IMG/VR virus record: IMGVR_UViG_3300025738_000001
Direction: 5' to 3' (one strand)
DNA: 64,000 bases
DNA from: a virus
A program made the position numbers and the translations under genes. Under the pieces are notes generated by a model that ran no database searches, had not been told where the DNA came from, and was given only the letters and a program-made list of their open reading frames with translations. This document shows positions 13,135-62,778 of this stretch, in pieces; position 1 is the stretch's first letter, and each line of letters begins with the position of its first letter.

Positions 13135-13158
13135 GGGAGCTTAGGCTCCCTTTTTTTT
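13135..13158 (+). terminator. Intrinsic terminator
   Basis: GGGAGC-TTAG-GCTCCC followed by T8. Confidence 0.85.
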
Positions 13159-13162
13159 GCTT

Positions 13163-16838: not shown

Positions 16839-19800
16839 ATGCCAGAATATACCCCACTAGATTTAGGTACCGGTGTTACCAGTGCCAAGCAAAGTAAGTT
16901 AGCTAATACTACTGAAGTGAAAGCTGAGAAGTTAGCACCTACTATGCTCCCATCATCGTTGGCTGAGTACGCTGCTGACAAACCTAATATCACTCTTGCT
17001 GAGATTGCTGAATACGAACAAGGTTACGCTGTTCAACAAGCACAACTCCAAGAACAAGAGCAAGCACGTATCGGTAACTTCCTTATAGAAGATACTAATA
17101 ATGTGATGGGCAACCTTGCCAACATTGGTGTACAAGCCGGTGCTGGTGTTGCACGAGTTGTTGCACAGATTGCTGCTTCTGTACCTGAGATATCAGCTAT
17201 AGCTGCACAGAAAACCATATCAGAAGAAGAGCGCACACTCTACTCAACTGCTGAGAAGAAGAAAGCCCGACTTGCTGGTGACACCCTTACTGATGCAGAG
17301 CGAGCAGTATATGAACCACAAGTCAATACTATTCAGACACGTAAACAACAAGGTACATTCGGTGACCAGTTCATTACTGAAACACAGGAGTCTACGAATA
17401 CACCTCAGTCTGTATTTTCTACAGCTAACCCTGACTTTGATGCTAGTGAGCCTGCGTTCGTTCCTGAGCAACAAACCACTCAACTTGCTACTGATACTTC
17501 TGCTGCTGATAAGCTTAGCGCCATAGACGACGTACAGAAATATATAACTGACCCTAAAGAGAAGTTCGTTAAGTTTATACGTTCACACGTAAACACTAAT
17601 AAAGAAGACGACCTTATTGCTGACCTTGGAGAAGACTATGACAAAGCTACTGCTAACTTCGAAGCTGGTAACTACGCTGATGGCGCACTCGACCTTGTTG
17701 CTGGCGGTGTTGGTTCCATCCTTAGTAATCCTAGTGCAACTGTTGGGTTCTTAGCAGAATCATTACCACAGATGTTAGCAACTACTATCCGTACTCCTGC
17801 AAACATTGCTTATGCAATTGATACAGCGACTAAGGGTATTGCTAAGTTTACTGAAGATAATGGCCGTGCTCCTACTCGTAATGAGATTAACCAGATTATG
17901 GCTGTATCTGCTTCTGCTGCCGCTGCTGAACAAGTAGGTGCCATCGGTGCTCTTGCTAAAGCTAAGAAAGTGGCTAAGGTTGCTGCTCCTCTTAAAGCTG
18001 CCAAGAATCCGGTTGTATCTAAATCTGTTACTGCACCGGTTAAGAAGATTGCTACTGCTACTGCGGGTGAAGCTGCAACTGAAGGTTTCCAAACTGCTGC
18101 GGAACAAGTAGCCGGAACTCTTGACGTATCTAAAGTAGAGGGTAAAGAAGTGTTCACTTCTGCAGCAATTGGTGGCGGTATCGGTAAAGGTATATCTACA
18201 GCTACTGAGGTAGTTCCTGCTGTTAAGACTTTGGCTCAAACTGCTACGACTAAAGCTGCTAAAGCATATGTTGCAGGCCAGGCTAAAGTAGCTAAGTCTA
18301 AAGAAGTTAAAGCAGCAAAATCAGTAGATGACCTTAAGACTCCTGAAGCTAAAGCTGAGTTCTTACTAACTCCTGATAACACTCCTGAAGATGTTGCTGG
18401 CCGTCAGAAGCAAGTTGCTGACATCCAAGAGCAGATTGATGCTGGAATGGAAGCTGTAAGTAAACTTACTGATGAGAAAGAAATCAATGCTGCGTTCGAC
18501 AAGCTTGATGCATTAGCAGAACAGCAAGAAGGTTTAGCTAATATCTCTGTGGAGACTCCTGCCCAAACTGCTACTGTAGTTGAAGCTATTACTGAAGCTA
18601 CGGAGAAGACTGCTGAATCAGATGGTTCGGTTCAACGTATATTCAACTCTATGGCTACCAGCCCGGGCCGTGTAACACCCGCTCAAGCTTTAGAAGTCGC
18701 TAACAGTGATGTTGTAACCCCTAAGCAGAAAGTCCAACTGGAGCAGTATGCTGCTACGGAAGAGGCTAAGTCAGTACTTGAAGTAGATAACGATATTCTA
18801 GTAGGTGGTAAAGGCTTCTTAGGTATTAAACAGTATCAAGCATCTATCAATGCTGCTAACACTCGCGGTGACAAGGCTGCTGCTACTAAGGCTATTGCTG
18901 GTTTAACCAAGTTTGCTACTGGTCACATTGCTAAAGCCGCTGCCTTCACTAAAGCATACGATGCTGTGATTGCTGGTGACTCTGCTGCTGATGCATTGGT
19001 TATCGGTGTACAAGCTGAATATGGTATCGAGATTCATAAGAACTCTAACCTTGCTAAGAACCCTCTTATCACTAACGTACAGAATGAAGCTGCTGCATTA
19101 ACTGCCGCTGTAACACAGGCTACCGGTACTGAATTCGTTGCTGATACTAATACTATTACTGCCCAGTCAATTGAGGCGCCTCAGAGCATACCTCAAAAGG
19201 GTAAGAAAGTCTCGAGTGAAAGTACTCCAGAAGTGGTAGAGGATTCAAGTGTTGGTATTGCACGTATTGCACAGTATGTTGATGCGATTGAAGCCAAGGG
19301 TGGTATTGAGTTAACTGAGTCATTCACTAGCAAGGTTGCTAAACTTACTTCACAGTCTGCACCGAAGAACGTGCAGTTCATGCTTAATTTGGCTCAGAAG
19401 ATTGCTGACCAGAATGCCGTTAAAGTAGTTGACCGTACTGAGGTCATTACCGAAACTGAAGTAACTGAGGAAGTAGTCACTGACTTGGAAACATCACAAG
19501 AGGTAATTACTGATGAAAACATTGTTGAACAAGTGGTTAACGAAGAAGGGACAGCGGAAGTTGAGACTAGCTCTACTGTTAATAACGAGCTTCATAATAA
19601 TACTTTGCGCAGCCACAAGCTTGGCCTACGTCCTAAGTATAACACTGCCGCTAATGTTGTAGCCAAAGGTATTAATGGTACTCTTGCTGCTAACTTCACT
19701 GGTAAAGTTAATACAGCTAACCTTCTTCATCAAGTAGAGAACTTCTTTACTGACTACGCTAATGATAAGCGTGTTGCTGGACAATTAACTCCTGCACAGT

Positions 19801-22800
19801 CTAAAGGTATGGATGTTATTGCTAAATACAATGGTACGTTCACTGCAAGTGTTCTTGAGTTGTTCGCTCCTATTACAGGCAAGCGTACTGATAAGAAGAC
19901 AGGCGTTGAGTTCAATAATGTAGACCTGTTCAATGATAGCTTCCAATCACTAGCTGCTGAAGATGGTTCATTTGATGGGAACTTACTATCAACTATGGCT
20001 GTTGTTACTGCTAACTGGTTAACTTCAGAAGCGTACAACAACGTGTATAACTCAGTGCAAGATATCAATAAGATTCTTGGTAAACCAAGTGACACGCCTC
20101 TATTAGATGGTGCTATGGCTACGTTACAGAAAGTAGGCTCAGTACGTAATGTTATTGAAGAGTCCCTAGGTAAAGAGATTCTTGCTGCTACTGGTATCCG
20201 TGCTAACAAGAATGCACCCGGTCAGCTTCAAGGCAACCTGGCTTTATCATTAGGTCAAATGGCTGTAGCTGTTATGTTGGACCAAGGTTTCTTGAAAGAG
20301 CACACTGTTCCTTCTGCTCGTATTGCAGTATTTGCCGGTGACACTAAGCCTGCTACAGATGCCCGCGTGTATACTTCATTCCTTCGTGTAGATACACAGG
20401 TTAATGGCAATGAACGTGAGATTCCTTCTAAACAGATTGACGACCTAGTTAACTCTATTCGTGACTCTGAAAATGTATTGGATACTGCGTTCGGTGTTGC
20501 CTCTAAAGAAACTGGCCCAGTATTCGAAGTACCTACTAGTGTAGTACAGAACATTAAAGGTAACTTCCAGAAGGTTAGTAAATCTGTTCAGAAGATTATC
20601 AAGGCTCACCAAGAACGACCACATGCAATCAAACGTGATGTGAGCAATGTGTTTGGCTTCCTACCAGAAGACATGCAACTTGATATGCTTGGTTATAAAT
20701 CAGACGTTGAGAACACTGTTCACAAATATCACCATGCTGGTACTGTTGGCCTAAACAATGAGATTGTTCGTAGTGTGGAAAACAACACTAACTTCCAGTC
20801 TAAGTTACTGGCTCAAGGTTCATTGGATACCAAGTTCTACATGATGCATGAAGTATGGAAGAACCAACGTCTAGGTATGATTTCTAATACAATCAATCTG
20901 CAGGGTGATAAGTTACATCGTCACCTTTATGGTATGGATGTATGGACTACTACTGTTGACCCAATTGCACAACCTGAGTTATTAATCCAAGCTAAACTAG
21001 CTGTAGCGGAAGGTCTTGGTATCTCTGTTGATAAACTAACTGTTGATGCATCACTTGCTCAGTATGAAGCTTTGATTAAGACTCCTGAGATTAAGTTAGC
21101 CATGAAAGCAATCAAAGCTGTTAATGGTAAACGTGCTGTTAACGAAGATAAGATTGACCAGTACCAAGATGCGATACTAGCCGCTGTTAAAATGGGTGGA
21201 GAGAAAGCGTTCACACTGGATGCATTAGTTAACTTGGTTAAGATTAGTAATACTGAGTCGTTCGACTTCAACCTGTTCCGTGAAGTAGATGGTATCACTA
21301 ATGGTGTTGCTATCGGTACATGGCAGTTAGGCGCTGCAGATGATGTTGCAGATATGAATGTACGTCTTACTCGTACTGGTTTATACAATGAAGAGAATGC
21401 GGCTACTCATGGTGAACGCGCTATGAACCCGAACAACAAAGATAGCTACAATGACTTATCTGCTGAGTGGGAAACACATATGGACCTTGAGAGAGCTGGT
21501 TCAAATAATGCCCAACTTGCTGCATTAGATATTCTTATCTTTGGTGCTGACAAGGCTACTGCGATTACCCGTGCAATGTCTAAGAACCCGTTAATGATTA
21601 CTAACTACGGTGCTGCTATTAAAGGTGTTGTGGATGCGTTTGCTGAAGACATCGTTGGTAACATATACACTAAGTTAGCTTCTGCTGATGCGGTTACTCT
21701 TAAGCAGTTACAGGCCCAAATAGAAACTGTATCTGGTAAGAAGTTTGTGATTAAGCCAGGCGAACAATTGAATACTCTTATGTCGCCTGATGCTGATTTA
21801 GCTATTCGTCAGTACATAGCACAGACCTATGGACAAGCATTAGAGAATGCCCTTGAAGCTAAGTACCATGCATTCAGCACTAACCGTACTTCAGTTAATA
21901 CTGCAATGACTGTTATGTTCGAAGCATTCAACATCCGTTATAAGCGTGAACTTGCTCTTGGTGAATCTAAGTTAGGGCATGCAATGTCTGCTGACTCTAA
22001 AGCTGAGTTAGTACAGACGTTGATGGATTCTGTGCCGGTATTTAATAACTACTTCTCTAAACTGTCGGGTAATGCCAATGAGAAAACGCTAGCCATGAAG
22101 TCTAAGAAAGTACGCCAGTATGAGAATAAAGATTACATCCAAGAACAGCGTTACAGTCGTCCAATTAACGGTACTAGTAATCCTAATAAAAATGGAGCTA
22201 ACACCAAGTCTACTACCGGTTACTCATCTATTGATGAATGGCAGGACGCTGGCGTTGCTCCGATGATTCTTGCGATTCACGGTATTGATGCTGCTACTAT
22301 GGTTCTACAGCTTGAGAATAATTCAGGCCTTAACGTACATGATGCTTATGCCTTCTCTATTGATGAAGCGGTTAGCGGTACACAGAACTTTAATGAAGGC
22401 TTCCATAAAGTAATGAGCGAGCTTACTGTTGCTGAAGAAGTATTGAATGAAGTGACTAAAGCGATACGTATACTAGTAGATGAAGATAAGGCTGATGGGA
22501 CAGATAACATCAAACAGTTGAACCAAATCTTAACTGGTAAAAAGATGGGTACTGTTAGTGAGTACTTAGCTACAGCAACTACCGAGCTAAAAGATATTAT
22601 AGCTACTAAGAATGAGACTACGGATTCAATCAAAGTAGTTAGCCAGTATCACACAGAAGGTGGGGCATTCAATGTACCTACGGAGTCTGCTGAGACTTCT
22701 ATTGACGACGATGTTGCAAATATCTCTGAGGACATACGTGGTTCGTCTTCTCAAGGAGTGGACACTAACAACTTCAATGAGCAGTTTAGCGATGACGTTA

Positions 22801-25800
22801 ACAAGGAGAACAGCGTTCAGGTATTTGATGCAATGGTCAACATGGGGAACATTACAGCCTCTATAGCGCATCAAGGGGCATTAAAAGAGACATTAACTAA
22901 CATGGTTAATAAAGTATTACGTCCTATGTCAGTTAAGTTACGTGATGTTCAACAAGGCGAGACTCGTGGTGTTGTACAAGGCCAGAGCATCTATATTGAG
23001 TCTGCTGTTGGTGGCGTGAATAACCAGGTGCAAATGAGTGTACAGGAAGTATATGTGCATGAGCTAGTGCATAGCGTAACTGCTGCCGGTATTGATGGTA
23101 CTTCATGGGCTGCACGCGAACTAAACAAGTTGTTCTTGAAAGCACGTAAAGAGTTGACGTTCGAAGCGTTCCTTACTCCGGGTGAGACCCGTACTTCTGA
23201 GACAGATGCTGCTGCACAGGCTCGCTATGACCATATCTTCAATAACAAAGATGTTTATGTGACGGGTGGTAAATCAGGCTTAACGGATACTACAGCTAAG
23301 CGTAGCGGTCACTTACATGAGTTCATGGCAATTGGTTTGACTAATGAGAACTTCATGAATGCCTTAGGTAAACTGGAATCAAACAAGCCAGAGCGTTTCA
23401 AGGTTCCTACTACTTGGAAAATGTTAGAAGAGTTGTTCACACGTATACTAGATTTCTTTACTGCGCAGATTACACAGACTGGCCGTATGGCTGCTGACGC
23501 TAAACTACGTGCATTAGGTGAACAACTTGCAGGGATTAACCATCGTAAGCAGTCTGCTATTTACACTATGTATGACAAAGCTGCTGATACTTTGGATGAC
23601 GCTTCTAAGCTATTAGTTAAGAAGGTTATAGCACCACTACAGAAACTAACTACTGCTCCTATTGTTAAGAACTCTAAGAAGAAAGTTGTAGGCCAGTTAG
23701 GTCGTATAGGCAGAGCATCTACTAAGTTCACATTTGAACAATGGCAGAATGCTTTACTACTAGCCCGAGGCAATGCACGTTCAGTACGTGATGGTTTCTT
23801 TGCTCAGCTAATCACTGAAGGTAAAGGCCGTACTGCTTCTAATGGTTACATGCATACACTTGGTCGCCATGCTAATAAAGTGATTGACCAAGCTCGTCGT
23901 GAGACTCAGGTAGCAGTTTCTAAGCACTTGTTATCTACGTTCAAGTCTGAGCTTACTAGTGATGACAAGAATGCAATAACACGCGCTCTACTTAAGACAG
24001 ATATTGTTAGCATTACTGGTGAATACGGCATGGACGAGATTGCTGACTTACTTGTTGATGACGCTAAGTTAACCGCTCAGATTGATATAGTTACTAAAAA
24101 ATTAACCGGAGCCAACAAGCACTTCTATATGAAGCAAGCTCGTAACTTAGGTTTGATTATGGCAACTGGTACAAGCCGTGAGCATCTTACTCTACGTAAC
24201 GCTGGTACTATCGCGTTCTATGATAAAGCTAACCAAGATGCGCAGAATGGTGACAACGTAGATGTTATTGATACATTGGCTACACTTTATGCAATGAGTT
24301 ATACACTTGGTTCTGAGAAAGCATTAGCTTCTGCAGTAATCAAAAATGAGTATGCCGCCGATACTAAAGACAACGGTATCATCTTTACTATGCAAGAGCA
24401 TGCGTTCACTAAAGAAGACGCGGCTAAGAATAACTTTGCTGGAAATGAAGCGTTAATCGTTAAGGGCCATACTAAGGAAATCCTTGACCCTAATGTTACT
24501 CTTCAATCTGTAAACGAAGAGGATGTAGCTGACCTATTGCAGGCTGGTTGGAAAGTAGTTGCTAAGCATAAACTTGACCCTACTCAAGACCGTAACCCGC
24601 AAGTATTGATGGTGAACAAGGATGGTTTGACAGCTCGTTATGATTCAGGTGTTGCGTCGTTAACTAGTCTGTCTGCTCAAGGTACTGACTTGATTGCGCA
24701 GAATGTATCCCGTCTTGGCGAGAACTCTATCACTCAGGCTACTGCTGATGCGCGAGCTGACCATGGTATAATTGAAGCCCGTAAAGGTCGTGTTATTGCA
24801 CAGATGTTTAAGGCCGGTGATACCCGTGTAGATGAAGGTACTAACATGCTAGTAGAGATTCATGATAACCAAGGTAACTTAACTGGTTTCCGCTACATGA
24901 TGAATGAGCAAACTAAGATTAATCTTATGAGTAAAGATGATTCATTCGACCAAGTGTTAGGCCACATGGTTGCAAGTGTACAAGATAAGGTTAAGTCTGC
25001 TGAGCTGAATGCACAGGTAGTTAGTTCTTTACATGAGGACTACTTAGGGAACTTCGCTAAGACTCCTGCTCTGTTTACTAAAGTGGGCCCAACTAGTACT
25101 GATGAGTCGCTTAAGGAAATATACGCGATGATGCCTCATGAGATGCGTGAGAGCATTAAGTCTACTTGGGGTGGTAAAGATATGTATGTTCGTCGTGACA
25201 TGATTACATTGGTTTTCGGTCAACGTAAACTATCTGTGTCGTCACTTAAAAAAGTAGATGTGGAGCAGGAGCAAGGCCTTAAGAAGATTGAAGGTTTGTT
25301 CAATAATGCGTTGGTGGCAATGTTCGCTAACCCTAAAGCTAAGTTCATTGAGGATGTATGGAAAGAAGTAGTGGTAGCGGTTAAGGACGCTATTGTTATT
25401 AAATCTATCGTAGTTACCCAAGGTAACATAGGCTCTAATGTGGTATTGCTTAAGACGTTAGGCGTACCTATGAAGAACATCGTTCGTGACCATGCTATTG
25501 CTATACGCTCAACTAAAGACTTCTTGAAAGATAAGTCTGCGTTGTTCGAAGCTGAACGTGATTTAGAACGCGGTCGTGGCAATAAAAAAGAACTTGAATT
25601 CAAGATTGCTCAATTGAATACGAGTATTGCTAATAACCCTGTTAAGTTCTTAATGGATGAAGGTATATATACTGCCATAGTTGAAGACTTAGGTGACACT
25701 GATAAGCAGTTCACTAAAGCAGGTAAATTGGATAAAGCTATTGCACCGTTGAAGTCGAGTAAGGCTGCTAAACCACTAGTTAAAGCTGCTGAGGTTGTGT

Positions 25801-26234
25801 TACTGACCCATGAAACTAAGGCGTATAAGTTCCTACGTGATGCTGCTCAGTTATCTGACTTCGTGGCTCGCTTTACTTTACACCAGAACAACATAGCTAA
25901 AGGTATGACGCCTAAACAGTCTGTGGATATGATTGTTGATATATTTATTAACTATGACTTACCGACTCATAAGGTTATCCAGTATCTGAATGACATTGGT
26001 TTCGTTATGTTCACTAAGTTCTTTATACGTACACAAAAAGTTATCCTCCACATCATGAAGGAGCATCCTGGCAACACGCTTGCTAATGTGTTACTTCAGG
26101 GCCAATTCGGTGATGTGTCGGATATCATGGATTCAAACCTATTGCAGGCAAATCTATACGGTAAAACTAACTTCAATCTTCCGTCGTTAGTACCGTCAAT
26201 TGTAGACTTACCTACATTGAATCTTGTTCGTTAA
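16839..26234 (+). CDS. Virion-encapsidated RNA polymerase (N4 gp50-like vRNAP), 3131 aa
   Basis: Single-subunit RNAP motifs in the central third: motif A REVDGITNG (Asp ~aa 1484), motif B R-AMS-K-NPLMITN-YG (aa 1578-1591, same R-x3-K-x7-YG spacing as T7 RNAP), motif C NVHDAYAF (Asp ~aa 1835). Giant size; last gene of the structural operon, as I recall for N4. Confidence 0.85.
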   Translation: MPEYTPLDLGTGVTSAKQSKLANTTEVKAEKLAPTMLPSSLAEYAADKPNITLAEIAEYEQGYAVQQAQLQEQEQARIGNFLIEDTNNVMGNLANIGVQAGAGVARVVAQIAASVPEISAIAAQKTISEEERTLYSTAEKKKARLAGDTLTDAERAVYEPQVNTIQTRKQQGTFGDQFITETQESTNTPQSVFSTANPDFDASEPAFVPEQQTTQLATDTSAADKLSAIDDVQKYITDPKEKFVKFIRSHVNTNKEDDLIADLGEDYDKATANFEAGNYADGALDLVAGGVGSILSNPSATVGFLAESLPQMLATTIRTPANIAYAIDTATKGIAKFTEDNGRAPTRNEINQIMAVSASAAAAEQVGAIGALAKAKKVAKVAAPLKAAKNPVVSKSVTAPVKKIATATAGEAATEGFQTAAEQVAGTLDVSKVEGKEVFTSAAIGGGIGKGISTATEVVPAVKTLAQTATTKAAKAYVAGQAKVAKSKEVKAAKSVDDLKTPEAKAEFLLTPDNTPEDVAGRQKQVADIQEQIDAGMEAVSKLTDEKEINAAFDKLDALAEQQEGLANISVETPAQTATVVEAITEATEKTAESDGSVQRIFNSMATSPGRVTPAQALEVANSDVVTPKQKVQLEQYAATEEAKSVLEVDNDILVGGKGFLGIKQYQASINAANTRGDKAAATKAIAGLTKFATGHIAKAAAFTKAYDAVIAGDSAADALVIGVQAEYGIEIHKNSNLAKNPLITNVQNEAAALTAAVTQATGTEFVADTNTITAQSIEAPQSIPQKGKKVSSESTPEVVEDSSVGIARIAQYVDAIEAKGGIELTESFTSKVAKLTSQSAPKNVQFMLNLAQKIADQNAVKVVDRTEVITETEVTEEVVTDLETSQEVITDENIVEQVVNEEGTAEVETSSTVNNELHNNTLRSHKLGLRPKYNTAANVVAKGINGTLAANFTGKVNTANLLHQVENFFTDYANDKRVAGQLTPAQSKGMDVIAKYNGTFTASVLELFAPITGKRTDKKTGVEFNNVDLFNDSFQSLAAEDGSFDGNLLSTMAVVTANWLTSEAYNNVYNSVQDINKILGKPSDTPLLDGAMATLQKVGSVRNVIEESLGKEILAATGIRANKNAPGQLQGNLALSLGQMAVAVMLDQGFLKEHTVPSARIAVFAGDTKPATDARVYTSFLRVDTQVNGNEREIPSKQIDDLVNSIRDSENVLDTAFGVASKETGPVFEVPTSVVQNIKGNFQKVSKSVQKIIKAHQERPHAIKRDVSNVFGFLPEDMQLDMLGYKSDVENTVHKYHHAGTVGLNNEIVRSVENNTNFQSKLLAQGSLDTKFYMMHEVWKNQRLGMISNTINLQGDKLHRHLYGMDVWTTTVDPIAQPELLIQAKLAVAEGLGISVDKLTVDASLAQYEALIKTPEIKLAMKAIKAVNGKRAVNEDKIDQYQDAILAAVKMGGEKAFTLDALVNLVKISNTESFDFNLFREVDGITNGVAIGTWQLGAADDVADMNVRLTRTGLYNEENAATHGERAMNPNNKDSYNDLSAEWETHMDLERAGSNNAQLAALDILIFGADKATAITRAMSKNPLMITNYGAAIKGVVDAFAEDIVGNIYTKLASADAVTLKQLQAQIETVSGKKFVIKPGEQLNTLMSPDADLAIRQYIAQTYGQALENALEAKYHAFSTNRTSVNTAMTVMFEAFNIRYKRELALGESKLGHAMSADSKAELVQTLMDSVPVFNNYFSKLSGNANEKTLAMKSKKVRQYENKDYIQEQRYSRPINGTSNPNKNGANTKSTTGYSSIDEWQDAGVAPMILAIHGIDAATMVLQLENNSGLNVHDAYAFSIDEAVSGTQNFNEGFHKVMSELTVAEEVLNEVTKAIRILVDEDKADGTDNIKQLNQILTGKKMGTVSEYLATATTELKDIIATKNETTDSIKVVSQYHTEGGAFNVPTESAETSIDDDVANISEDIRGSSSQGVDTNNFNEQFSDDVNKENSVQVFDAMVNMGNITASIAHQGALKETLTNMVNKVLRPMSVKLRDVQQGETRGVVQGQSIYIESAVGGVNNQVQMSVQEVYVHELVHSVTAAGIDGTSWAARELNKLFLKARKELTFEAFLTPGETRTSETDAAAQARYDHIFNNKDVYVTGGKSGLTDTTAKRSGHLHEFMAIGLTNENFMNALGKLESNKPERFKVPTTWKMLEELFTRILDFFTAQITQTGRMAADAKLRALGEQLAGINHRKQSAIYTMYDKAADTLDDASKLLVKKVIAPLQKLTTAPIVKNSKKKVVGQLGRIGRASTKFTFEQWQNALLLARGNARSVRDGFFAQLITEGKGRTASNGYMHTLGRHANKVIDQARRETQVAVSKHLLSTFKSELTSDDKNAITRALLKTDIVSITGEYGMDEIADLLVDDAKLTAQIDIVTKKLTGANKHFYMKQARNLGLIMATGTSREHLTLRNAGTIAFYDKANQDAQNGDNVDVIDTLATLYAMSYTLGSEKALASAVIKNEYAADTKDNGIIFTMQEHAFTKEDAAKNNFAGNEALIVKGHTKEILDPNVTLQSVNEEDVADLLQAGWKVVAKHKLDPTQDRNPQVLMVNKDGLTARYDSGVASLTSLSAQGTDLIAQNVSRLGENSITQATADARADHGIIEARKGRVIAQMFKAGDTRVDEGTNMLVEIHDNQGNLTGFRYMMNEQTKINLMSKDDSFDQVLGHMVASVQDKVKSAELNAQVVSSLHEDYLGNFAKTPALFTKVGPTSTDESLKEIYAMMPHEMRESIKSTWGGKDMYVRRDMITLVFGQRKLSVSSLKKVDVEQEQGLKKIEGLFNNALVAMFANPKAKFIEDVWKEVVVAVKDAIVIKSIVVTQGNIGSNVVLLKTLGVPMKNIVRDHAIAIRSTKDFLKDKSALFEAERDLERGRGNKKELEFKIAQLNTSIANNPVKFLMDEGIYTAIVEDLGDTDKQFTKAGKLDKAIAPLKSSKAAKPLVKAAEVVLLTHETKAYKFLRDAAQLSDFVARFTLHQNNIAKGMTPKQSVDMIVDIFINYDLPTHKVIQYLNDIGFVMFTKFFIRTQKVILHIMKEHPGNTLANVLLQGQFGDVSDIMDSNLLQANLYGKTNFNLPSLVPSIVDLPTLNLVR

Positions 26235-45752: not shown

Positions 45753-46771
45753 AGTTGCTCCAATTGATAATTGTCATACCATTTCTTAATGAAGTACTCA
45801 ATCTTCTTCATATCATACTCAATAGATGTGCCTTCTTTGCCTTTACCTTGAGCGGCTAAGTGAACACGACGCATGGCTTTAAGTACATTTCCCAAGTCGA
45901 AGTCATTATCAACCAGTGCTTTGATTACATCACCAGTTTCAAATTGAACCTTGATAACCTGAGGCGTAACAGTTATACAGTTAGCTGCTGGAACCAACAC
46001 TTCTAGTTGATAGTAAGACGAGCTTCCTCCATCTGACTTAACCTCACCTTTATCACATTCAGGCTTAATCTTGTTAAGCACTATTGGGGCTCCTGGACCA
46101 AAGATACATTCCTTACCAAGAGTATCAGTTTCAGTTTTACCCTCAATGTCGCCGCAGCATTTAGCTATGACCTGTTGATTGGCTTCTTTAACAGCATCAA
46201 CGGCTTGGTTAAATATTCCGACACTATCCAACTTAGACTTCTCGAAGAACTTCTTACGGTCTTCTGCATTGACTAGCCAATTGTCTATACCTTGCTCATG
46301 TACTTTGTTGATGGAGTCTTGCACAGCGACTTTAGCGCCTTGGTCTATAAGCTTAGATATCCTAGCGTTAACTTCCTTGGCTTTCCCCAAGTCAATAGGC
46401 ATAGTTTGCTCCGTAGCAAAGAATCTAGCCTTGTCTTCTTCAAAGTTCTGCTGACGTATTTTATCCAAGTCGGCTAGGTTGCCATAGTACTGAGCTTTCT
46501 CAGCATTAGACATGTTGTGTACGTTAGTTACTGCACCTTCAAGTTGTACCTTACTAACGAATTGCCAGTTAATTTCCTTCAAGTCCAAGTTATTGCCTCC
46601 TACCGCATAAGGGAAGCCTTTGGTTAATGCCTTGTTACGCATTTCATCAATAGTAGGCATTGGGTCATCTTCTGTGAAGTACCATGAATTAGTGCCACTA
46701 CACAGCGCATACTTGCTATGTAGTTTATGAGTATAGAGTTTGTATATTGTAGTCATTAACGGATGCTCCAT
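45749..46771 (-). CDS. Hypothetical protein with C-terminal DUF3310-like domain
   Basis: C-terminus DGGSSSYYQL...GDVIKAL...FDLGNVLKAMRRV...KGKEG...YDMKKIEYFI resembles the DUF3310 pattern (from memory). Confidence 0.6.
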   Translation of the reverse strand: MEHPLMTTIYKLYTHKLHSKYALCSGTNSWYFTEDDPMPTIDEMRNKALTKGFPYAVGGNNLDLKEINWQFVSKVQLEGAVTNVHNMSNAEKAQYYGNLADLDKIRQQNFEEDKARFFATEQTMPIDLGKAKEVNARISKLIDQGAKVAVQDSINKVHEQGIDNWLVNAEDRKKFFEKSKLDSVGIFNQAVDAVKEANQQVIAKCCGDIEGKTETDTLGKECIFGPGAPIVLNKIKPECDKGEVKSDGGSSSYYQLEVLVPAANCITVTPQVIKVQFETGDVIKALVDNDFDLGNVLKAMRRVHLAAQGKGKEGTSIEYDMKKIEYFIKKWYDNYQLEQL

Positions 46772-47370
46772 TGAGTGTGATTCCAGTCCTGCAACATGGC
46801 AGAGATTTCATACCAGTCATGAGCACATATGGCTTCTTGGCGGTACGGACGGTTATGTGGTTGTTTAAGTAAGATACAGCTGTCGTACCCTGCATCCATT
46901 ACATCAGAGATATTCTGGTACTTATCATCAACGAATAAGTCAATGGTATGTGTCATGGCTATCTCTTGAATAGCAGTCACCTTGGATTCATTAAACCCAA
47001 CGAACTTAATCTCTTCAAAGATGTCACCGAACACATGGTATAAGTTAGCCTTGCGTAGTGCATGTACCTGAGGGTCTAAGCCACACGCGGTTACACAGAA
47101 TATGTCATATCCCTGCTGAACTAACTTGGTTAACACTCGACGTGCTCCTGGGAGTCCATCAAGAGCGCCACACTGCCAGCTTCCCATGAAAGCTTCTAGT
47201 ACTTCTCTATCCTGTCCCTTCTCAATGTCGAGCCATTCACACAGGTCCCAGTCCAGTGATTTACCCGTGATTGATTTACCGTGATGATGATTGAAGAATT
47301 CACGAACCCTCGAACCAAAGTCCAAGATAGTGTCATCCACATCAACAACAATTGCTTTACGTAATGTCAT
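46756..47370 (-). CDS. HAD-superfamily phosphatase (5'(3')-deoxyribonucleotidase-like)
   Basis: Motif I VVDVDDT (DxDxT) and motif IV LFVDDK. Start set at Met23 (RBS agaggaa); the longer track ORF adds an unlikely leader. Confidence 0.75.
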   Translation of the reverse strand: MTLRKAIVVDVDDTILDFGSRVREFFNHHHGKSITGKSLDWDLCEWLDIEKGQDREVLEAFMGSWQCGALDGLPGARRVLTKLVQQGYDIFCVTACGLDPQVHALRKANLYHVFGDIFEEIKFVGFNESKVTAIQEIAMTHTIDLFVDDKYQNISDVMDAGYDSCILLKQPHNRPYRQEAICAHDWYEISAMLQDWNHTQWSIR

Positions 47371-47532
47371 AATGCATTCCTCTAAAAGTATATAAAATAT
47401 GCCCATTTTACGCCTGGGCAGGCGACTAGGATTCACACCTAATTCTATTGATTAATCTTAAAGTCCGTCAACTGGGACTATTGACCAAATGACATGCCAC
47501 GAAGGGACTAACAGTGCTGACGATGGTGAATT

Positions 47533-47762: not shown

Positions 47763-47837
47763 TGGAGCAGGATGGGAGAATCGAACTCCCGCTTAGATGA
47801 TTTGCAATCAACCCTCTTTCCACTTGAGTAATCCTGC
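47763..47837 (-). tRNA. tRNA-Cys (GCA), CCA encoded
   Basis: Hand fold: acceptor GCAGGAT/ATCCTGC, D-loop with GG, anticodon loop TTGCAAA (one U-U in the stem), T-arm GGGAG-TTCGATT-CTCCC, discriminator U, CCA. Confidence 0.9.
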
Positions 47838-48191
47838 ATAGAATTGCTTTTTGATAAGCCAGAAGCATAGTAGAAAACTGGCATCTAAAACTCCCCGTGT
47901 TGGACATACGGTTCCACCTATTCACGGGCTAGTTAAAATTTGTTCAACACCCTTTGATAAACCAGAGGTGAGAGGAACTGGTACGAGGGTAGCGAACTCC
48001 CTTGTCAGGTGTAACCACCACCATTACGTGCTGAGGTTACGTCCTGAGTTGCGGCTCAGGTATCCTATTAGGATACGTCCAGTCGCGCTTTACTGGAATT
48101 ACCGAGCCATAATATTAGCTTGGGAACAGGTACGTAAGGATGCTTACGTGTTATCTGCAAGCCGCTCTTGCAAGCCTGCCCAAGTCTAAAC
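47838..48191 (-). ncRNA. ORF-free hairpin-rich RNA segment inside the tRNA array
   Basis: Perfect hairpins at 48043-48060, 48060-48076, 48132-48149 and 48156-48172 (6-7 bp each). T-arm-like AGGGA-GTTCGCT-ACCCT followed by CGTACCA ends near 47979. Butt-joined to flanking RNAs. Confidence 0.3.
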
Positions 48192-48273
48192 TGGTCGGAG
48201 TGACGGGGTACTCTCCCGCACGTAGGCAATTAAAGGCCTGCTCTTTGAGGTATCGTATTTGAGCTACACTCCG
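48192..48273 (-). ncRNA. Non-canonical tRNA-like RNA (82 nt, ACCA encoded, 8-nt anticodon-like loop CUUUAAUU)
   Basis: Perfect 7-bp acceptor CGGAGTG/CACTCCG + A + CCA; UA-GCUC...GAGC D-stem with a 17-nt loop lacking GG; 4-bp AGGC/GCCU stem; T-arm GCGGG-AGAGUAC-CCCGU lacks TTC. Confidence 0.45.
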
Positions 48274-48279
48274 TGAATT

Positions 48280-48381
48280 TGGTGACTCGTATCGTGAGCC
48301 TAACGGGATGGACCCATACCTGCGTTTACTACTAGACGGGCTTGATTCGCCATAAGGTTACTAGGGCCTTAAGTAAGTAAC
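48280..48381 (-). ncRNA. Spacer RNA ending in a minihelix + ACCA
   Basis: 3' end GGCTC-ACGATAC-GAGTC-ACCA (5-bp stem, 7-nt loop), directly followed by AAUUCA and the next tRNA-like RNA. Confidence 0.3.
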
Positions 48382-48457
48382 TGGTAGCAATGACTGGGGT
48401 TGAACCAGCGACCTTCCGCGTATGAAGCGGACGCTCTCCCTACTGAGCTACATTGCT
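48382..48457 (-). tRNA. tRNA-Met (CAT) (elongator Met or Ile2 cannot be distinguished), CCA encoded
   Basis: Hand fold, 76 nt: acceptor AGCAATG/CATTGCT, D-arm GCTC-AGTAGGGA-GAGC, anticodon arm TCCGC-TTCATAC-GCGGA, T-arm GCTGG-TTCAACC-CCAGT, ACCA. Confidence 0.9.
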
Positions 48458-48463
48458 ATTGTT

Positions 48464-48575
48464 TGGTAGTCCTTAACGGGGACTAGTCGGGAGGTACGTA
48501 TTGCCTACGGGTCTTAGCTTCTTTACGTCTAGGTTCGAATGTTGCCATCTACTTCGTGCCGCGTCTGCTAGTTAC
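48464..48575 (-). ncRNA. Spacer RNA ending in a minihelix + ACCA
   Basis: 3' end AGTCC-CCGTTAA-GGACT-ACCA (48464-48484), followed by AACAAU and tRNA-Met. Confidence 0.3.
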
Positions 48576-48648
48576 TGGGGGATAGGGTGGAATCGAACCA
48601 CCTTAGTCGACTTCTGCCCAAACTACGATGTTCTCGCGTTGCTATCCC
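48576..48648 (-). ncRNA. Degenerate tRNA-like RNA (73 nt)
   Basis: Acceptor GGGATAG/CTATCCC and canonical T-arm GGTGG-TTCGATT-CCACC. Position 8 is C, the D-stem is 3 bp, and the anticodon region is a bulged 7-bp stem with loop GCAGAAG. No readable anticodon. Confidence 0.45.
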
Positions 48649-48942: not shown

Positions 48943-49156
48943 TGTCTTCTCCCGGTATTGGACCGCTTAATAGTTCTACCAGTTTGGTAGCGCGTGTGAA
49001 TACTTCTACGATTTTTTTAGATTCAGGACTGCCTAATTCGGCCTCAGCTACAATGTCCTGATAACGGGCACGGAACAGTACGAACTTGCCTCCGCCATCA
49101 GCACCTGAGAATACATCAAGCATGATTTGGATGTCGTCATCTGTTACTTGGGCCAT
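48929..49156 (-). CDS. Hypothetical acidic protein (75 aa)
   Basis: ORF track; start overlaps the ligase stop by 13 nt. Confidence 0.55.
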   Translation of the reverse strand: MAQVTDDDIQIMLDVFSGADGGGKFVLFRARYQDIVAEAELGSPESKKIVEVFTRATKLVELLSGPIPGEDNGIS

Positions 49157-50538
49157 ACACCCTCCGGTACAGTTAAACCAAAGTCATCTGCTATCTGCTT
49201 CCAATGACGGTCTTGGCTTTCACGCCATTGCACAACTTCACCAGTACAACCATCATGAGACAGTTGTAGTTCACGTAGCATTTTATAAGTGCAATCGTCA
49301 TACTCGATAGGTATATCCGATTTACGTAGAGCCTCTTGTACACCGTGATTAAACAGGCTGTTTCCTTCAATCTCGTCAGAGTACACGTCTTCTTTTATTA
49401 GTACGCCTACTGCACACATGCAGCCTTCATCATTACGATAGACACATTGGCCTTCATCGTCTTGAGCTGGTTTACCTTGCTTACGTAGATGGTTCACAAC
49501 TGTTGAGAATAATTCTTGTAATTCCATACTGACTCCTAAAAAGTCTGGTTCAGATTTGTCCTGACGCTCTTCCCGTACTTTGGGAATACGAATCAAGCCA
49601 TTCTTAGATGAGGGTTGTAAGCCTGCTACATGGTAAATCTTACCGATAGGGCTATCTGCTGTGTTATTAATACCTGCTTGGTATAGAGCCTCACATGAAT
49701 CATGAGTCCATCCTTTACCCGGCATGGCTTTCAGTTCTACACCGTTGGCGTATCGGAAGTATAGATTAGCAACTAAGCCCTTATACTTTCCAGTACCTTC
49801 TTCGAATGAGATACATTCCAAGTCAACATGCATACCCCGAACAATTTTCATTTGATGCCAATCTTTAGCGCCACATAGGTAACCTACGTTCTGCTTAAAC
49901 ACTGCACCTTCTTTACCTGCATTGATATGCTGTTCGGCAAAGTCTTGAGCTTCCACCCAGTTGTTGATAACAACATAAGGTAATATTTTAAAGTAAGCAC
50001 CATCGAACGCATCAATCAAGTCGGAATGACGGTCAGCATAATTAGTAGCACTGAATCCTTCTATGAACTCATTGACAGTAATAGCATCAAAGTGTGAGAT
50101 GTAGAGTCCTGCAGCAATAGCCGGTTGGTCACAAATGGAACCATCCTTCTTATCTACTTTGACTCGTAATGGTTTAACACGAAGAGGATTAATACAGCCA
50201 CCAAGTTCTTCAAGCGAACATTCATGAGTACTAAGTATCTCACCGAAGTATAAGCCTGGTTCTATTTGGGCCTGGAAGTAGCTCTCAGCTACATGATGCG
50301 TATTTGGCATAAGTTTACCGGTACGATTAAAGAGTCTCACCTCGCCATCGTCACGTACAGCCACGGCACAAAATACACCGTCTTCTTTTAACTGACCAAA
50401 CATAGGCCAAGATACTTTCTTGTGAAGAATACCTTGCTCTACTAATGGATTAACATCTTCGAAGTTCTTCACCAGTTGGTAAATCTTCTTCTCTTTACGA
50501 TGGTCTGCTGGCAAACCATAGAATTCAAATATATTCAT
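49144..50538 (-). CDS. ATP-dependent DNA ligase (T7-like core) with ~125-aa Cys-containing C-terminal extension
   Basis: Motif I LKEDG, motif IV KEGAVFK, motif V DWHQMKIV with T7-ligase-like spacing, and an OB-like LIRIPKVREER. Start set at Met26 (ATGA coupling to an upstream micro-ORF). Confidence 0.8.
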   Translation of the reverse strand: MNIFEFYGLPADHRKEKKIYQLVKNFEDVNPLVEQGILHKKVSWPMFGQLKEDGVFCAVAVRDDGEVRLFNRTGKLMPNTHHVAESYFQAQIEPGLYFGEILSTHECSLEELGGCINPLRVKPLRVKVDKKDGSICDQPAIAAGLYISHFDAITVNEFIEGFSATNYADRHSDLIDAFDGAYFKILPYVVINNWVEAQDFAEQHINAGKEGAVFKQNVGYLCGAKDWHQMKIVRGMHVDLECISFEEGTGKYKGLVANLYFRYANGVELKAMPGKGWTHDSCEALYQAGINNTADSPIGKIYHVAGLQPSSKNGLIRIPKVREERQDKSEPDFLGVSMELQELFSTVVNHLRKQGKPAQDDEGQCVYRNDEGCMCAVGVLIKEDVYSDEIEGNSLFNHGVQEALRKSDIPIEYDDCTYKMLRELQLSHDGCTGEVVQWRESQDRHWKQIADDFGLTVPEGVWPK

Positions 50539-50687
50539 CCTGCATATTCCTCGGGTGTGTTGCCGCCTTTGAAAGTTACCCATATGGTTACACAAGGTAG
50601 CGGATTGAAACAAATACGTTTGTTATAAGGTGACCAATGAACGCCTACCCAAAACGACGCTAATCGAAATATCATGCCTGCTTTCAT
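50535..50687 (-). CDS. Micro-ORF (50 aa), below the ORF-track cutoff
   Basis: Hand translation MKAGMIFRLASFWVGVHWSPYNKRICFNPLPCVTIWVTFKGGNTPEEYAG. RBS gaggtga 4 nt before the ATG; ATGA overlap with the ligase start. Confidence 0.55.
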   Translation of the reverse strand: MKAGMIFRLASFWVGVHWSPYNKRICFNPLPCVTIWVTFKGGNTPEEYAG

Positions 50688-52063: not shown

Positions 52064-52279
52064 GGGACGGCCAGGGGAATCGAACCCCTGTTAGAGACTA
52101 GGACATCAGTCACATGCCGTTAAGGTTAATTAGGCCTATGTGGATAGTTGCAACTACACACTAATCATCTGTTGGGGAATTAAACCCCAATGCTAGTTTC
52201 CTTTGCACCAAGCACCGACATTGTTCGGATTACGGGAAAGCCTACGATAGTAGCGCGCTCTATAAAGTAGCGCCGTCCC
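52064..52279 (-). ncRNA. 216-nt tRNA-like RNA: acceptor stem + T-arm closing a ~140-nt structured insert
   Basis: 8-bp perfect terminal pairing GGGACGGC/GCCGTCCC. T-arm AGGGG-TTCGATT-CCCCT next to the 3' strand. Internal T-arm-like GGGG-TTTAATT-CCCC at 52174-52188. 8 nt downstream of tRNA-Ser. Confidence 0.5.
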
Positions 52280-52287
52280 ATAATTAG

Positions 52288-52376
52288 TGGCGGAGGTAGC
52301 AGGACTTGAACCTGCACACCCTTTCGAGTGAATGAATTAGCAATCCATGACGATACCAATTTCGCTTGATACCTCC
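52288..52376 (-). tRNA. tRNA-Ser (GCT), class II, CCA encoded
   Basis: Hand fold, 89 nt: acceptor GGAGGTA/TACCTCC, anticodon arm ATGGA-TTGCTAA-TTCAT, long variable arm CACTC-GAAA-GGGTG, T-arm GCAGG-TTCAAGT-CCTGC, GCCA. Confidence 0.9.
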
Positions 52377-52736
52377 TAAATTTGGTGAGAATTTACTATT
52401 TAAAGACCGCGATTATCTACTATAACGCTCTGAATCTGAGTGCATCTTCATCATGTATCATAGCGGACTATCCTTATCAGGACTCTCGAACATAGTCTGT
52501 TATACCTATTGAAGGGCTGCACTCTTGCCCCGCTTTAGCTACCTATTGAATTTGTCTTAGTTTTCCTAATCCAGCCCTGTGAAAGAGACTGGGCTATCTT
52601 CTCAGAGATAGTTTGAGAGGTTGCGCTCTCTTACACTTATTTTAAAGTGGTGTGTGACTCAAACCACTGTTACTCCAAGGGCCATCCGCCTACCGAAATA
52701 GGAACTTATGAATCTTACACGCGAGGAGCCAATTAA

Positions 52737-56781: not shown

Positions 56782-56944
56782 TCTTACGTTCCTCATTAAG
56801 TATTAGGCGGAGTTTATGTAGTTTGTTCATAGTCATAGTTAAGTCAAATGATTGGGCATGGGAGATGCGTAGAGTACCTACACTAAGCAGGTACTGCATT
56901 GCCTCATCCAGTGTCTTCAATGCCTCTGTATTAGCTAAGGGCAT
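56768..56944 (-). CDS. Early hypothetical protein (58 aa)
   Basis: ORF track 56768..56950; overlaps the RNAP II stop. Confidence 0.5.
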   Translation of the reverse strand: MPLANTEALKTLDEAMQYLLSVGTLRISHAQSFDLTMTMNKLHKLRLILNEERKNDKA

Positions 56945-58124
56945 ATTCACTCTCTCTGATTAGTTGTGGTAGGTCATAGCTTAACTTCTCGAACAAGTCA
57001 CATTCTTGCATGCTTCCTAACACGCGTGTTAATGCAGGGCAGGCTGCGATTTCAGCCATGATTTCTTTATAGTTGTAGCGTACTTCGTTCATGTTGTTAG
57101 GGTGAGCTTTGAACTCATCATGCACAGTAACTACTGCAAATGGTTTCTTGTCTAACATAAGGTTAAGACGCGCAACCATACGGGTTAAGTCAAATGTATT
57201 CACTAGTTTGATATCAGTTAGCTTCATGTCATGAATGTGAGGCATACAAATCATTTCAGGTTCTCTTGGTACGATAGGAGTATCAGTACGTTGGTCTAAC
57301 TCGTATGTCATAGCAGCATGCTTAAGGCGCACATCTATTAGGTTGTAGTTACAACGAGCTTTCATCTCACGTACAACCAGACCATCGAATGATTGAGTCA
57401 TATTAGCAGGCAATGAGATACCGTTATCACTGGCTCCCACTTCATCCCATACATAGGTGAATGATGAACCAATCTCTTCAACTTCAATGATAGCCTTCTG
57501 TTGAGTCTTAACTTTAACGTGACAGGCCATACCATCAAGCTGAGTCCAGTGCTGTGCGTCTACAGTAGTATCCCAAAAGTTGTTAATGATACGCATACCA
57601 AGCATAGCTCCCAGCAGCTCCTTCTCCATAGTATCCATGAAGCGTAAGTATTCAGGAGTATCATCACCGAATACCTTTTTAGGTTCAGCTTTAGAGTTAT
57701 AGAAGGTAACCATGATAGGGTTCTTGATTATCTTACGGGTGATTCCTAAGCCCATTTGGATTGACATCTTAAGGTATAAGTCTGAGCGTTCACCTGTATC
57801 AATAAGGTTAACTAACTTAGCAGTGGCATGACAACCAGTCATACAGGCCAACATCTGTGGGCCAGACGCAGTAGCATCCAGTCCCATTAGATGACCAGAT
57901 GGCTTACCTTCTTGGCAGTCACGTAATGCATATACAGCCTTGATGAATAGGATTGGTTCATCAGCGTCATACATCATGTTCTCAAGTGATTCAATGTTGT
58001 CATCAACCCAGTCAATGCGGTCTTGCCATAAGGCCTTATCCAGACCTCCCGGATACTGAGCAGTTACACCCATGTTGTTTGCGATATCAATCTTTACGTA
58101 TTGGATTCCAGTAAATGTTTGCAT
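56931..58124 (-). CDS. Phage RNA polymerase II, catalytic subunit (N4 gp16-like, T7-like palm/fingers)
   Basis: Motif A GLDATASG, motif B R-KII-K-NPIMVTF-YN (R-x3-K-x7-Y), motif C VTVHDEF. Confidence 0.85.
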   Translation of the reverse strand: MQTFTGIQYVKIDIANNMGVTAQYPGGLDKALWQDRIDWVDDNIESLENMMYDADEPILFIKAVYALRDCQEGKPSGHLMGLDATASGPQMLACMTGCHATAKLVNLIDTGERSDLYLKMSIQMGLGITRKIIKNPIMVTFYNSKAEPKKVFGDDTPEYLRFMDTMEKELLGAMLGMRIINNFWDTTVDAQHWTQLDGMACHVKVKTQQKAIIEVEEIGSSFTYVWDEVGASDNGISLPANMTQSFDGLVVREMKARCNYNLIDVRLKHAAMTYELDQRTDTPIVPREPEMICMPHIHDMKLTDIKLVNTFDLTRMVARLNLMLDKKPFAVVTVHDEFKAHPNNMNEVRYNYKEIMAEIAACPALTRVLGSMQECDLFEKLSYDLPQLIRESEYALS

Positions 58125-58238
58125 GTGGTTCTTCCTTTAGTTTGGCTTTAAGTGTGCGCAGGTAGCGCAAGTGTACTAGTCGAGGTGTATCAGGGAACTG
58201 GCCGTGTTTGGCTAACCAGTCTAGTTCCCACAGTAGTC

Positions 58239-59192
58239 TTAACAAGTGATTAGTTCCATTTCATTCAGTACGATAGCACCACGTTTATATGCTGAGCCTT
58301 GATGGTTTACATGATAGCCTTGAGTGTATGCTCTAATACGTTCATCAACGCGGTTAGTAAGATAAAAGCAATTACCAGCGTCAAGAAGCATAGTATAAAC
58401 TTCAGTGGATACTCTGCACATTTCACTAAAGGCTTGAGCTTTTCTTTCGACATACGCAGCCTTAGCCCAATCAGGCGTTGCTTCATATTTTTCACCTGAG
58501 TCGAAAGGCTTTTTAGGAGTCTCTGGGAAAGCCAGCATACGACTATCGAGACTAAAAGGAATGCTGTTCTCAGTTTGCAATACAGCAAGAGGGAGTTTGA
58601 ACTCATGGTGACTACCTTTGCCCAACAAGATGGACTTTTGAGTGTTTAGATACCCACTTGAGTTGTTATCAGTGAGTGGCAATGGTTTAACTAGCATAGG
58701 TGGTAAGTACATGGCACGGTTGATAATGTCCTTGGTTTCATCGGACACCTCATATAGATTCTTGATTAAGATTGAACCGGTCTCACTGTCTTGAGGATAG
58801 ATGAATTCATATACTCCAGTGTGAGCCAATACACCAATCATTTCAGCAGCAGTCTTGATGCCATCAATCTTATCAGCATACATGAGACGTGAGCCAATTT
58901 GAGCAGCAATGTTCTGTATTTGTTGTGGATGTTCTACTGTAACGATTGCAGCCAGAATATCAATAGCAACGGAGCGTAGACAGACAGTAGGGCTAAGAGC
59001 AGCAAGCCTTTCATTTTTACCTTCCCAATACTGATTGTGGTTAATGAATGTGGTGAGATATTCCTCACCAGCGTCAACAGCATCAGTCATGTGCTCCTTA
59101 ACCATGTTACGTAGAGTACGCTTGATGGTAGCTGGGTCACACGACTTTTCGATACTTAGTTGTAGTTCTTTTAGTTGGTTTAAGTTTGGCAT
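58239..59192 (-). CDS. Phage RNA polymerase II, N-terminal subunit (N4 gp15-like)
   Basis: Immediately upstream of the catalytic subunit. VDERIRAY resembles the T7 RNAP DWRGRVY (T/DxxGR) element. 317 aa. Confidence 0.7.
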   Translation of the reverse strand: MPNLNQLKELQLSIEKSCDPATIKRTLRNMVKEHMTDAVDAGEEYLTTFINHNQYWEGKNERLAALSPTVCLRSVAIDILAAIVTVEHPQQIQNIAAQIGSRLMYADKIDGIKTAAEMIGVLAHTGVYEFIYPQDSETGSILIKNLYEVSDETKDIINRAMYLPPMLVKPLPLTDNNSSGYLNTQKSILLGKGSHHEFKLPLAVLQTENSIPFSLDSRMLAFPETPKKPFDSGEKYEATPDWAKAAYVERKAQAFSEMCRVSTEVYTMLLDAGNCFYLTNRVDERIRAYTQGYHVNHQGSAYKRGAIVLNEMELITC

Positions 59193-62475: not shown

Positions 62476-62694
62476 CTAACTCCAAGTAATGTTAAGGTTA
62501 AGTAGTTGGTTATAGTGGTCTAACAGTGCGTCACAGTCTTCAAGCTTACCCAAGAGTTCGCCCTCTTCAACTACGAGGCATAACATCTCAGCGCCATCGG
62601 GATTCTTGCATTGAGCCACATGGTTAATTTGTAAGTCGGTAAGCAACTGAGTGCCTAAGTTGTTGAGGTAAATTACTTTATCTAGGTTAAGCAT
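62476..62694 (-). CDS. Early hypothetical protein (72 aa)
   Basis: Met22 of the track ORF; RBS aggag at 6 nt. Confidence 0.55.
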   Translation of the reverse strand: MLNLDKVIYLNNLGTQLLTDLQINHVAQCKNPDGAEMLCLVVEEGELLGKLEDCDALLDHYNQLLNLNITWS

Positions 62695-62778
62695 GAGGAC
62701 TCCTAACTGAATAGTGTTACGAAAGAGATTAATATGATTACTATTAGTACAGCGCACACTGCGTCAAAGGTTGTATAT

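Follow-up and report, generated by a model that had tools for sequence, protein, structure and literature searches.

An 82-nt RNA gene located in the tRNA array of an uncultured marine phage is probably a tRNA-derived, non-decoding RNA of that array. The gene was found in a 64,000-nt stretch of viral DNA (IMG/VR record IMGVR_UViG_3300025738_000001, hereafter the window), where the initial annotation had described a tRNA-like RNA whose D, anticodon, and T loops are noncanonical. Our analysis bears this description out and places the gene in a phage tRNA cluster. That selection on its shape has maintained the element, rather than its being a neutral relic, is a tentative proposition to which we give slightly less than an even chance.

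The source phage is an uncultured marine N4-like (Schitoviridae-type) podovirus. The window encodes a 3131-aa ORF of the size of a virion RNA polymerase (16839-26234), an N4-type portal, major head protein and primase, and two N4-like RNA polymerase II subunits (56931-59192). Judged by the primase, the nearest cultured phages are Vibrio N4-likes, with an identity of only ~52%, and sampling of the lineage is sparse. IMG/VR also contains a 33.4-kb twin contig (100%), in which the 82-nt element is likewise 100% identical. Beyond ~26.4 kb the genes are oriented leftward, and the element is encoded on the same (minus) strand. With default settings, ARAGORN reported tRNA-Cys and tRNA-Met only, both on the minus strand, while Rfam additionally called a tRNA-Ser(GCU) at 52293-52374; with the Rfam tRNA model the tRNAs neighboring the element scored 67.1 and 57.7 bits. 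The element lies in a phage tRNA cluster, between tRNA-Met and tRNA-Cys and on their strand, and ends in a tRNA-like acceptor (7-bp stem plus ACCA). The 11-mer at its 5' junction also precedes tRNA-Ser, with one pyrimidine change, at 52377-52387, and the corresponding motif, CACCA-AAUUYA, occurs exactly twice, ahead of the 82-nt element and ahead of tRNA-Ser. Of the neighboring genes, the adjacent ligase gene encodes a DNA ligase of the T7 type, and the one after it an NT5C-type nucleotidase. A tRNA-repair context was considered and rejected, given the type of this ligase and a 'PNK-like' PHROG hit that had no Pfam support.

Table 1. Coordinates of the 82-nt element, its parts, and its neighbors in the window
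Feature	Position	Strand	Evidence
Whole 82-nt tRNA-shaped RNA gene, including encoded ACCA	48192..48273	-	MFE cloverleaf, strict scan, identical twin
Acceptor stem, 5' strand CGGAGUG; C1-G72 as in tRNA-Pro	48267..48273	-	
D arm: GCUC/GAGC stem, 17-nt loop AAAUACGAUACCUCAAA without GG	48240..48264	-	
Anticodon-type arm: AGGC/GCCU stem, 8-nt loop CUUUAAUU (48228-48235), without nucleotide 26	48224..48239	-	
Variable region ACGU, 4 nt; G46-like and U48-like positions kept	48220..48223	-	
T arm: GCGGG/CCCGU stem, noncanonical loop AGAGUAC	48203..48219	-	
Acceptor stem, 3' strand CACUCCG, discriminator A, encoded CCA	48192..48202	-	
5' junction CACCA-AAUUCA: ACCA end of the preceding 102-nt hairpin RNA and 6-nt spacer	48274..48284	-	
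tRNA-Met(CAU), canonical, encoded CCA, upstream array neighbor	48382..48457	-	ARAGORN and Rfam, 67.1 bits
tRNA-Cys(GCA), canonical, encoded CCA, downstream array neighbor	47763..47837	-	ARAGORN and Rfam

On the minus strand the element reads CGGAGUG UA GCUC AAAUACGAUACCUCAAA GAGC AGGC CUUUAAUU GCCU ACGU GCGGG AGAGUAC CCCGU CACUCCG A CCA, which gives a cloverleaf with acceptor, D, anticodon-type, and T stems of 7, 4, 4, and 5 bp, respectively. All 20 stem pairs are intact (19 Watson-Crick and one G-U) and are followed by A73 and the encoded CCA. The individual features listed in the initial annotation were each recovered from the sequence: a perfect 7-bp acceptor stem with discriminator A and encoded CCA, the UA-GCUC...GAGC frame of the D arm around a 17-nt loop devoid of GG, the T-loop AGAGUAC, and four Watson-Crick anticodon-stem pairs closing an 8-nt loop at the coordinates given in Table 1. 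Nucleotides of the tRNA core are present, including U8, A14, A21, A15/U48, C13-G22 with G46, and G53-C61, the last of these being one of the T-stem pairs, along with G49-U65, C50-G64, and G51-C63. The nucleotides of the elbow, namely G18 and G19 in the D-loop and U54, U55, C56, and A58 in the T-loop, are missing. Compared with the UUCGAAU of phage tRNAs, the T-loop differs at five of seven positions, and the D-loop is expanded to the length given above. The anticodon stem consists of four pairs and a C.U mismatch, versus 5 bp in canonical tRNAs, and nucleotide 26 is missing. The sequence thus preserves both the core of a tRNA and its acceptor/T-stem helix, and the changes are confined to the elbow and the anticodon loop.

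Both the MFE and the centroid fold of the element are exactly this cloverleaf (-25.8 kcal/mol, z = -2.63), and 4 of 200 shuffled sequences folded equally well. The cloverleaf was retained on folding with 241 nt of context, for which z was only -1.07. In that fold the segment 48317-48335 pairs with the post-CCA trailer 48176-48191 (minus strand), enclosing both the 102-nt hairpin RNA and the element; with so weak a z score, the enclosing pairing of the two modules may be due to chance. The initial annotation had named a re-fold with a canonical 7-nt loop as a finding that would overturn the 8-nt loop, and the 8-nt-loop fold survived this check. Only one such fold was obtained, a 'Leu CAG' reported by ARAGORN at a threshold of <=75%, and it did not displace the cloverleaf, having no U33 and a weak two-pair D arm and reaching -16.4 kcal/mol when evaluated without the D arm, i.e., 9.4 kcal/mol weaker. 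Complementarity between the D-loop and the T-loop as a replacement for the elbow was not significant, being equaled in 576 of 5000 shuffles. The heptamer ACGAUAC appears both in the D-loop and in the loop of the preceding hairpin, a coincidence that is at chance level within the window and was dismissed.

To gauge chance, we applied a custom-written, strict cloverleaf scan to both strands of the window, and it returned only tRNA-Met and the 82-nt element. In dinucleotide-shuffled 64-kb strands the scan gave 17 hits in 237 strands when CCA was not required. Scaling ~0.07 per strand by ~1/64 for CCA and by two strands, we expect ~0.002 chance cloverleaves with CCA per window, both strands included, a figure that depends on our own scaling. 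Models of tRNA did not recover the element. The Rfam tRNA model RF00005 yielded no match to it at E<=10 in searches of 7 kb and of 126 nt, no other family matched it in the Rfam searches, and ARAGORN missed it with default settings. Taking the RF00005 gathering threshold of 29 bits as the criterion for a canonical tRNA, the element scores below it and, by this measure, is not a canonical tRNA.

Its sequence nevertheless appears clearly tRNA-derived. In having C1-G72 and A73, the acceptor stem follows the tRNA-Pro type, and acceptor stem and discriminator are identical at 13 of 15 positions to the tRNA-Pro of Vibrio phage K479 and to that of an actinobacterial genome. The D-arm sequence, UAGCUCA...AGAGC, is of a common tRNA type and recurs in the neighboring tRNA-Met, and the 8-nt loop is similar to two anticodon loops, CUUUGAU of the Gln(UUG) tRNA of phage SBP1 and CUUUUAA of Lys(UUU). 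R1, a covariance model for which the 82-nt element was the sole input sequence, recovered one foreign sequence only, the tRNA-Gln(UUG) of the Vibrio N4-like phage SBP1 (24.9 bits, E ~6e-5). Origin from a single isoacceptor could not be assigned, the acceptor being Pro-type and the loop Gln/Lys-like. No paralogous copies of the element were found within the window. A fragment of an attP or integration site is a poor fit, since the element is a whole cloverleaf, and no integrase was found among the 27 window proteins scanned. In the Moritellaceae, the candidate host family, R1 found neither a homologue of the element nor, therefore, any resemblance to a host tRNA in 13 genomes (Moritella PE36 and 12 others).

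The occurrence of the element beyond the window was then searched for in several collections. A blastn search against a GenBank phage collection gave no match, and scanning IMG/VR with exact and degenerate patterns of the D arm, of the loops with ACCA, and of the tRNA-Cys of the lineage retrieved the twin contig only. Searches anchored on the ligase and the ATPase returned the twin contig and otherwise relatives that were <=48% identical. The closest relative of the ATPase, P0122, is 87% identical and lies on a 50.8-kb contig, and a ligase homologue (P0008) and an NT5C homologue (P0198) apparently lie together on one 81.7-kb contig, this being the length given for the longest contig of each. 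R1 found no homologue of the element in 79 IMG/VR N4-like loci or in metagenome and genome loci around NT5C homologues, nothing in the record of phage K479, and only the tRNA-Gln in SBP1. The 82-nt element is thus most likely lineage-specific, being confined, within the collections searched, to one phage lineage. With no homologue found, the argument for selection on the fold is made from one sequence.

The closest relative inspected is a sister N4-like phage represented by fragments in genome bin G002, which shares with the window phage a primase 77% identical in amino acids, an NT5C 61% identical, and a tRNA-Cys 91% identical in nucleotides. It is spread over several short contigs, L101 (G002:C126), L103 (G002:C75), and L112 (G002:C29), in an Ilumatobacteraceae MAG, into which they look to have been mis-binned. 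A 4.6-kb contig of this phage carries small ORFs and a tRNA-Cys leader homologous to those of the window, and just 208 nt separate its last ORF from tRNA-Cys. This syntenic site lacks the element, tRNA-Met, and the remaining RNAs of the same array, and R1, run with filters off, found no copy in the three fragments inspected. Array content differs strongly between the two phages, tRNA-Cys being the sole array member conserved in the sister phage, which has a canonical tRNA-Pro(UGG) elsewhere. The initial annotation had named a lack of conservation in relatives as a finding that would refute its reading; the element is unconserved in the one relative inspected, which lowers any claim of a conserved function. 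The tRNA-Cys leader is conserved in both phages (window ~47975-48010, minus strand; L101 ~3090-3150, plus strand) and includes the motif CUGGUUUA as well as a hairpin whose loop, UUCGCUA, is T-loop-like; the conservation does not extend to the ~800 nt of array on its upstream side.

We propose that the element is one module of a polycistronic RNA-gene array within the leftward block and that this array would be transcribed as a single precursor. Host RNase P would cleave 5' of C1, the same cut releasing the ACCA end of the preceding hairpin RNA, and exonucleases would trim the 3' trailer to the encoded CCA, giving the 82-nt RNA. The shared ACCA junction and the encoded ACCA fit the usual way in which RNase P and 3' exonucleases process tRNA operons, and the features of a processing substrate are present, with the acceptor stem (7 bp) stacked on the T stem (5 bp) and ACCA following. 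Recognition by RNase P also uses the elbow formed by the T-loop and D-loop, and processing of the elbow-less element may be inefficient. Once released, we infer that the RNA would act as a tRNA mimic for tRNA-binding factors and not as a ribosomal adaptor; at a minimum, it would serve as a processing unit of the array.

Decoding is the function that a cloverleaf would suggest, and the element could be taken for a working tRNA, either an ochre/amber suppressor (anticodon UUA, A37) or a +1 frameshift or quadruplet reader, through which certain phage genes would undergo programmed read-through. The most tRNA-like register of its loop is C32 U33 U34 U35 A36 A37, with anticodon UUA, in agreement with the initial annotation, and the acceptor stem and CCA are perfect. 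Moreover, G49-U65, C50-G64, and G51-C63 form a T-stem combination that has been reported as tight, with high affinity for EF-Tu (PMC7826273). These pairs fit the proposed tRNA ancestry of the element and would be no proof of translational use. Enlarged loops are known from the tRNA-Pro-derived frameshift suppressors sufA6 and sufB2, which also counts for decoding. The enlarged loop of the element is present, but in a noncanonical tRNA body: the 8-nt sequence does not provide a canonical 7-nt loop with U33 and purine 37, the anticodon stem is 1 bp short, nucleotide 26 and every elbow signature are absent, and the element stays below the report threshold of the tRNA covariance model. No synthetase identity set fits it; ProRS requires G35 and G36, and GlnRS favors G36, G73, and a weak 1-72 pair. 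Lacking an elbow and having an 8-nt loop, the 82-nt RNA is unlikely, from its sequence features, to function on the bacterial ribosome. Nor do the genes in the window call for such a tRNA. TAA is the commonest stop, ending 39 of the 65 coding-strand ORFs of at least 80 aa, no coding-strand TAA in the window has an open in-frame or +1 continuation of at least 80 codons, and none of the 14 TAAA stops continues in +1 for at least 80 codons. The caution in the initial annotation that genome-wide stop recoding is not indicated is upheld by these counts, while its suggested suppressor or frameshift-suppressor role loses ground, no gene having been found that needs read-through of UAA/UAG or a +1 shift at TAAA. 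A scan of 27 window proteins brought up no tRNA-dependent transferase (Fem-type, L/F-type, or other), and the neighboring genes scanned included no tRNA-repair enzyme, RNA ligase, or other partner gene. A true UAA/UAG-reading tRNA for low-level programmed read-through is a bold reading, less likely than that of a purpose-built mimic (see below), and we hold any decoding role for this RNA to be very improbable.

Of the readings in which the RNA does not decode, a shape-kept RNA has to be weighed against a neutral relic, that is, a recently inactivated or patchwork pseudo-tRNA that is co-transcribed and perhaps processed but functionless, and that is heading for loss in a fast-changing array. 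Such a relic would be expected to be missing from the syntenic site of the sister phage, whose array differs so strongly, and from every collection searched, as is the case; it would also account for the failure of ARAGORN at default settings and of the Rfam tRNA model to report the element and for its chimeric look, with a Pro-type acceptor joined to a Gln/Lys-like loop. Yet decay should strike stems too, and here all 20 pairs and the core nucleotides are intact, nearly all consensus loop nucleotides have been replaced while the helices stay whole, and the encoded ACCA and the shared junction motif are undamaged. This pattern is not that of neutral decay and therefore favors an RNA kept for its shape. 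We rate a neutral relic as somewhat unlikely, and a plain decayed pseudogene, one of the roles put forward in the initial annotation, as less likely than was allowed there. That the cloverleaf arose by chance, or is a piece of an unrelated structured RNA or mRNA leader, would agree with the absence of an Rfam tRNA match and with the weak z score of the 241-nt context. However, the expected number of chance cloverleaves with CCA is far below one per window, the element is flanked by canonical tRNAs on its own strand, it has U8, A14, A21, and G53-C61, its tRNA-type D arm is common to tRNA-Met, and R1 specifically retrieves a phage tRNA-Gln, all of which leave an origin unrelated to tRNA extremely improbable.

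If the shape of the RNA is what is kept, one conceivable benefit lies in defense, recent work having shown that phage tRNAs are able to defeat tRNA-targeting defenses. A decoy for a host tRNA-directed defense enzyme is a role that we infer and regard as improbable. For phage tRNAs with altered anticodon loops, an escape from host anticodon nucleases has been predicted (PMC10264068). Such tRNAs are canonical, decode, and carry point changes. The element likewise departs from the host-type loop but, being an improbable decoder, would be at most a decoy, not a replacement tRNA. A decoy role, although conjectural in itself, fits this literature on phage tRNAs and defense (PMC10264068). In its strongest form, the element would be a purpose-built mimic in which the core, the Pro-type acceptor, and ACCA were kept, the elbow was replaced, and a Lys/Gln-like loop was enlarged, so as to titrate an enzyme that attacks tRNA. 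Such a mimic would avoid the ribosome, its targets would be a PrrC- or PARIS-type anticodon nuclease or a CCA-end-modifying toxin, and together with the neighboring hairpin-ACCA modules it would make up an RNA 'sponge' array. We consider this elaboration decidedly unlikely.

Phage tRNA clusters have long been known to contain extra tRNA-like RNAs. RNA C and RNA D (species 1 and 2) of phage T4 and the 'stable RNAs' of the T5 tRNA region are, like the element, small RNAs encoded inside the tRNA cluster of a lytic phage and on the same strand, and they have tRNA-like ends and are released by the host tRNA-processing machinery. These RNAs are ~120-140 nt long and have no full cloverleaf, whereas the element is a complete 82-nt cloverleaf with only the elbow and the anticodon loop altered. 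An 8-nt anticodon loop is shared with the +1 suppressors sufA6 and sufB2 (tRNA-Pro) and sufD (tRNA-Gly), which are otherwise canonical and have one extra loop nucleotide matching the codon family. The Pro-type acceptor of the element recalls the suppressors derived from tRNA-Pro, but its body is noncanonical. Elbow signatures have also been lost in the staphylococcal non-proteogenic tRNA-Gly. These are cloverleaf tRNAs that are off the ribosome and still functional (PMC7826273). They have weak EF-Tu T-stem pairs, are charged by GlyRS, and feed Fem transferases; the element, in contrast, has the 'tight' pairs, fits no synthetase identity set, and has no transferase gene in sight nearby. A further case is tRNA-Other of Bacillus cereus, a pseudo-tRNA that is poorly or not used in translation and has been recruited outside decoding (PMC3399842). 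This tRNA-shaped RNA is encoded on a bacterial chromosome, has a Trp anticodon, and acts via the T-box system, whereas the element is a phage gene.

Within this class, the element is a clean natural case in which the part of a tRNA that serves the ribosome (the elbow) and the part that serves normal decoding (the 7-nt loop) have been lost and the rest kept. Should it prove to be made and to be of use, the element would qualify as a candidate RNA decoy and offer a way into the function of the whole class of RNAs. The weight of the case is limited by its being one copy, in one sparsely sampled lineage, and unconserved in the relative inspected.

Several other features of the window and its relatives were recorded. 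The NT5C/HAD-type nucleotidase (46756-47436, minus strand) shares 59-60% identity with genes on the chromosomes of several Moritella genomes, and the sister phage and a Moritella genome bin come from the same study; the match and the shared origin are hints of a Moritella-like host. The 489-aa DNA ligase of the window (49144-50613, minus strand) is a fusion whose C-terminal ~125 aa resemble a separate ORF of the sister phage, being 39% identical (E 1e-26) to a 132-aa ORF that follows its 330-aa ligase (L101:639-1631 for the ligase and L101:1641-2039 for the ORF). Two ORFs ending in TAG, 13157-15205 (plus strand) and 62476-62757 (minus strand), are followed in frame by 144 and 143 open codons, respectively, and both continuations are probably just adjacent genes in the same frame. 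The GenBank record of Vibrio phage K479 annotates a 126-nt 'tRNA' (L086:1398-1523).

Degenerate tRNA-like pieces with perfect GGUUCGAUUCC-type T arms occur at 48579-48648 and 52073-52090 (both minus strand). One, a 70-nt RNA, combines an acceptor stem with a T arm but has no normal D or anticodon arm, and the other is an isolated T arm within a longer RNA. Hairpins running directly into ACCA ('minihelix-ACCA'), followed by a short A/U-rich spacer, were observed in the window at 48284-48310 and 48466-48495 (minus strand), and such hairpin-ACCA modules also occur in noncoding gaps of the sister phage, at L101 ~2712-2735 (plus strand) and L112 ~615-640 (minus strand).
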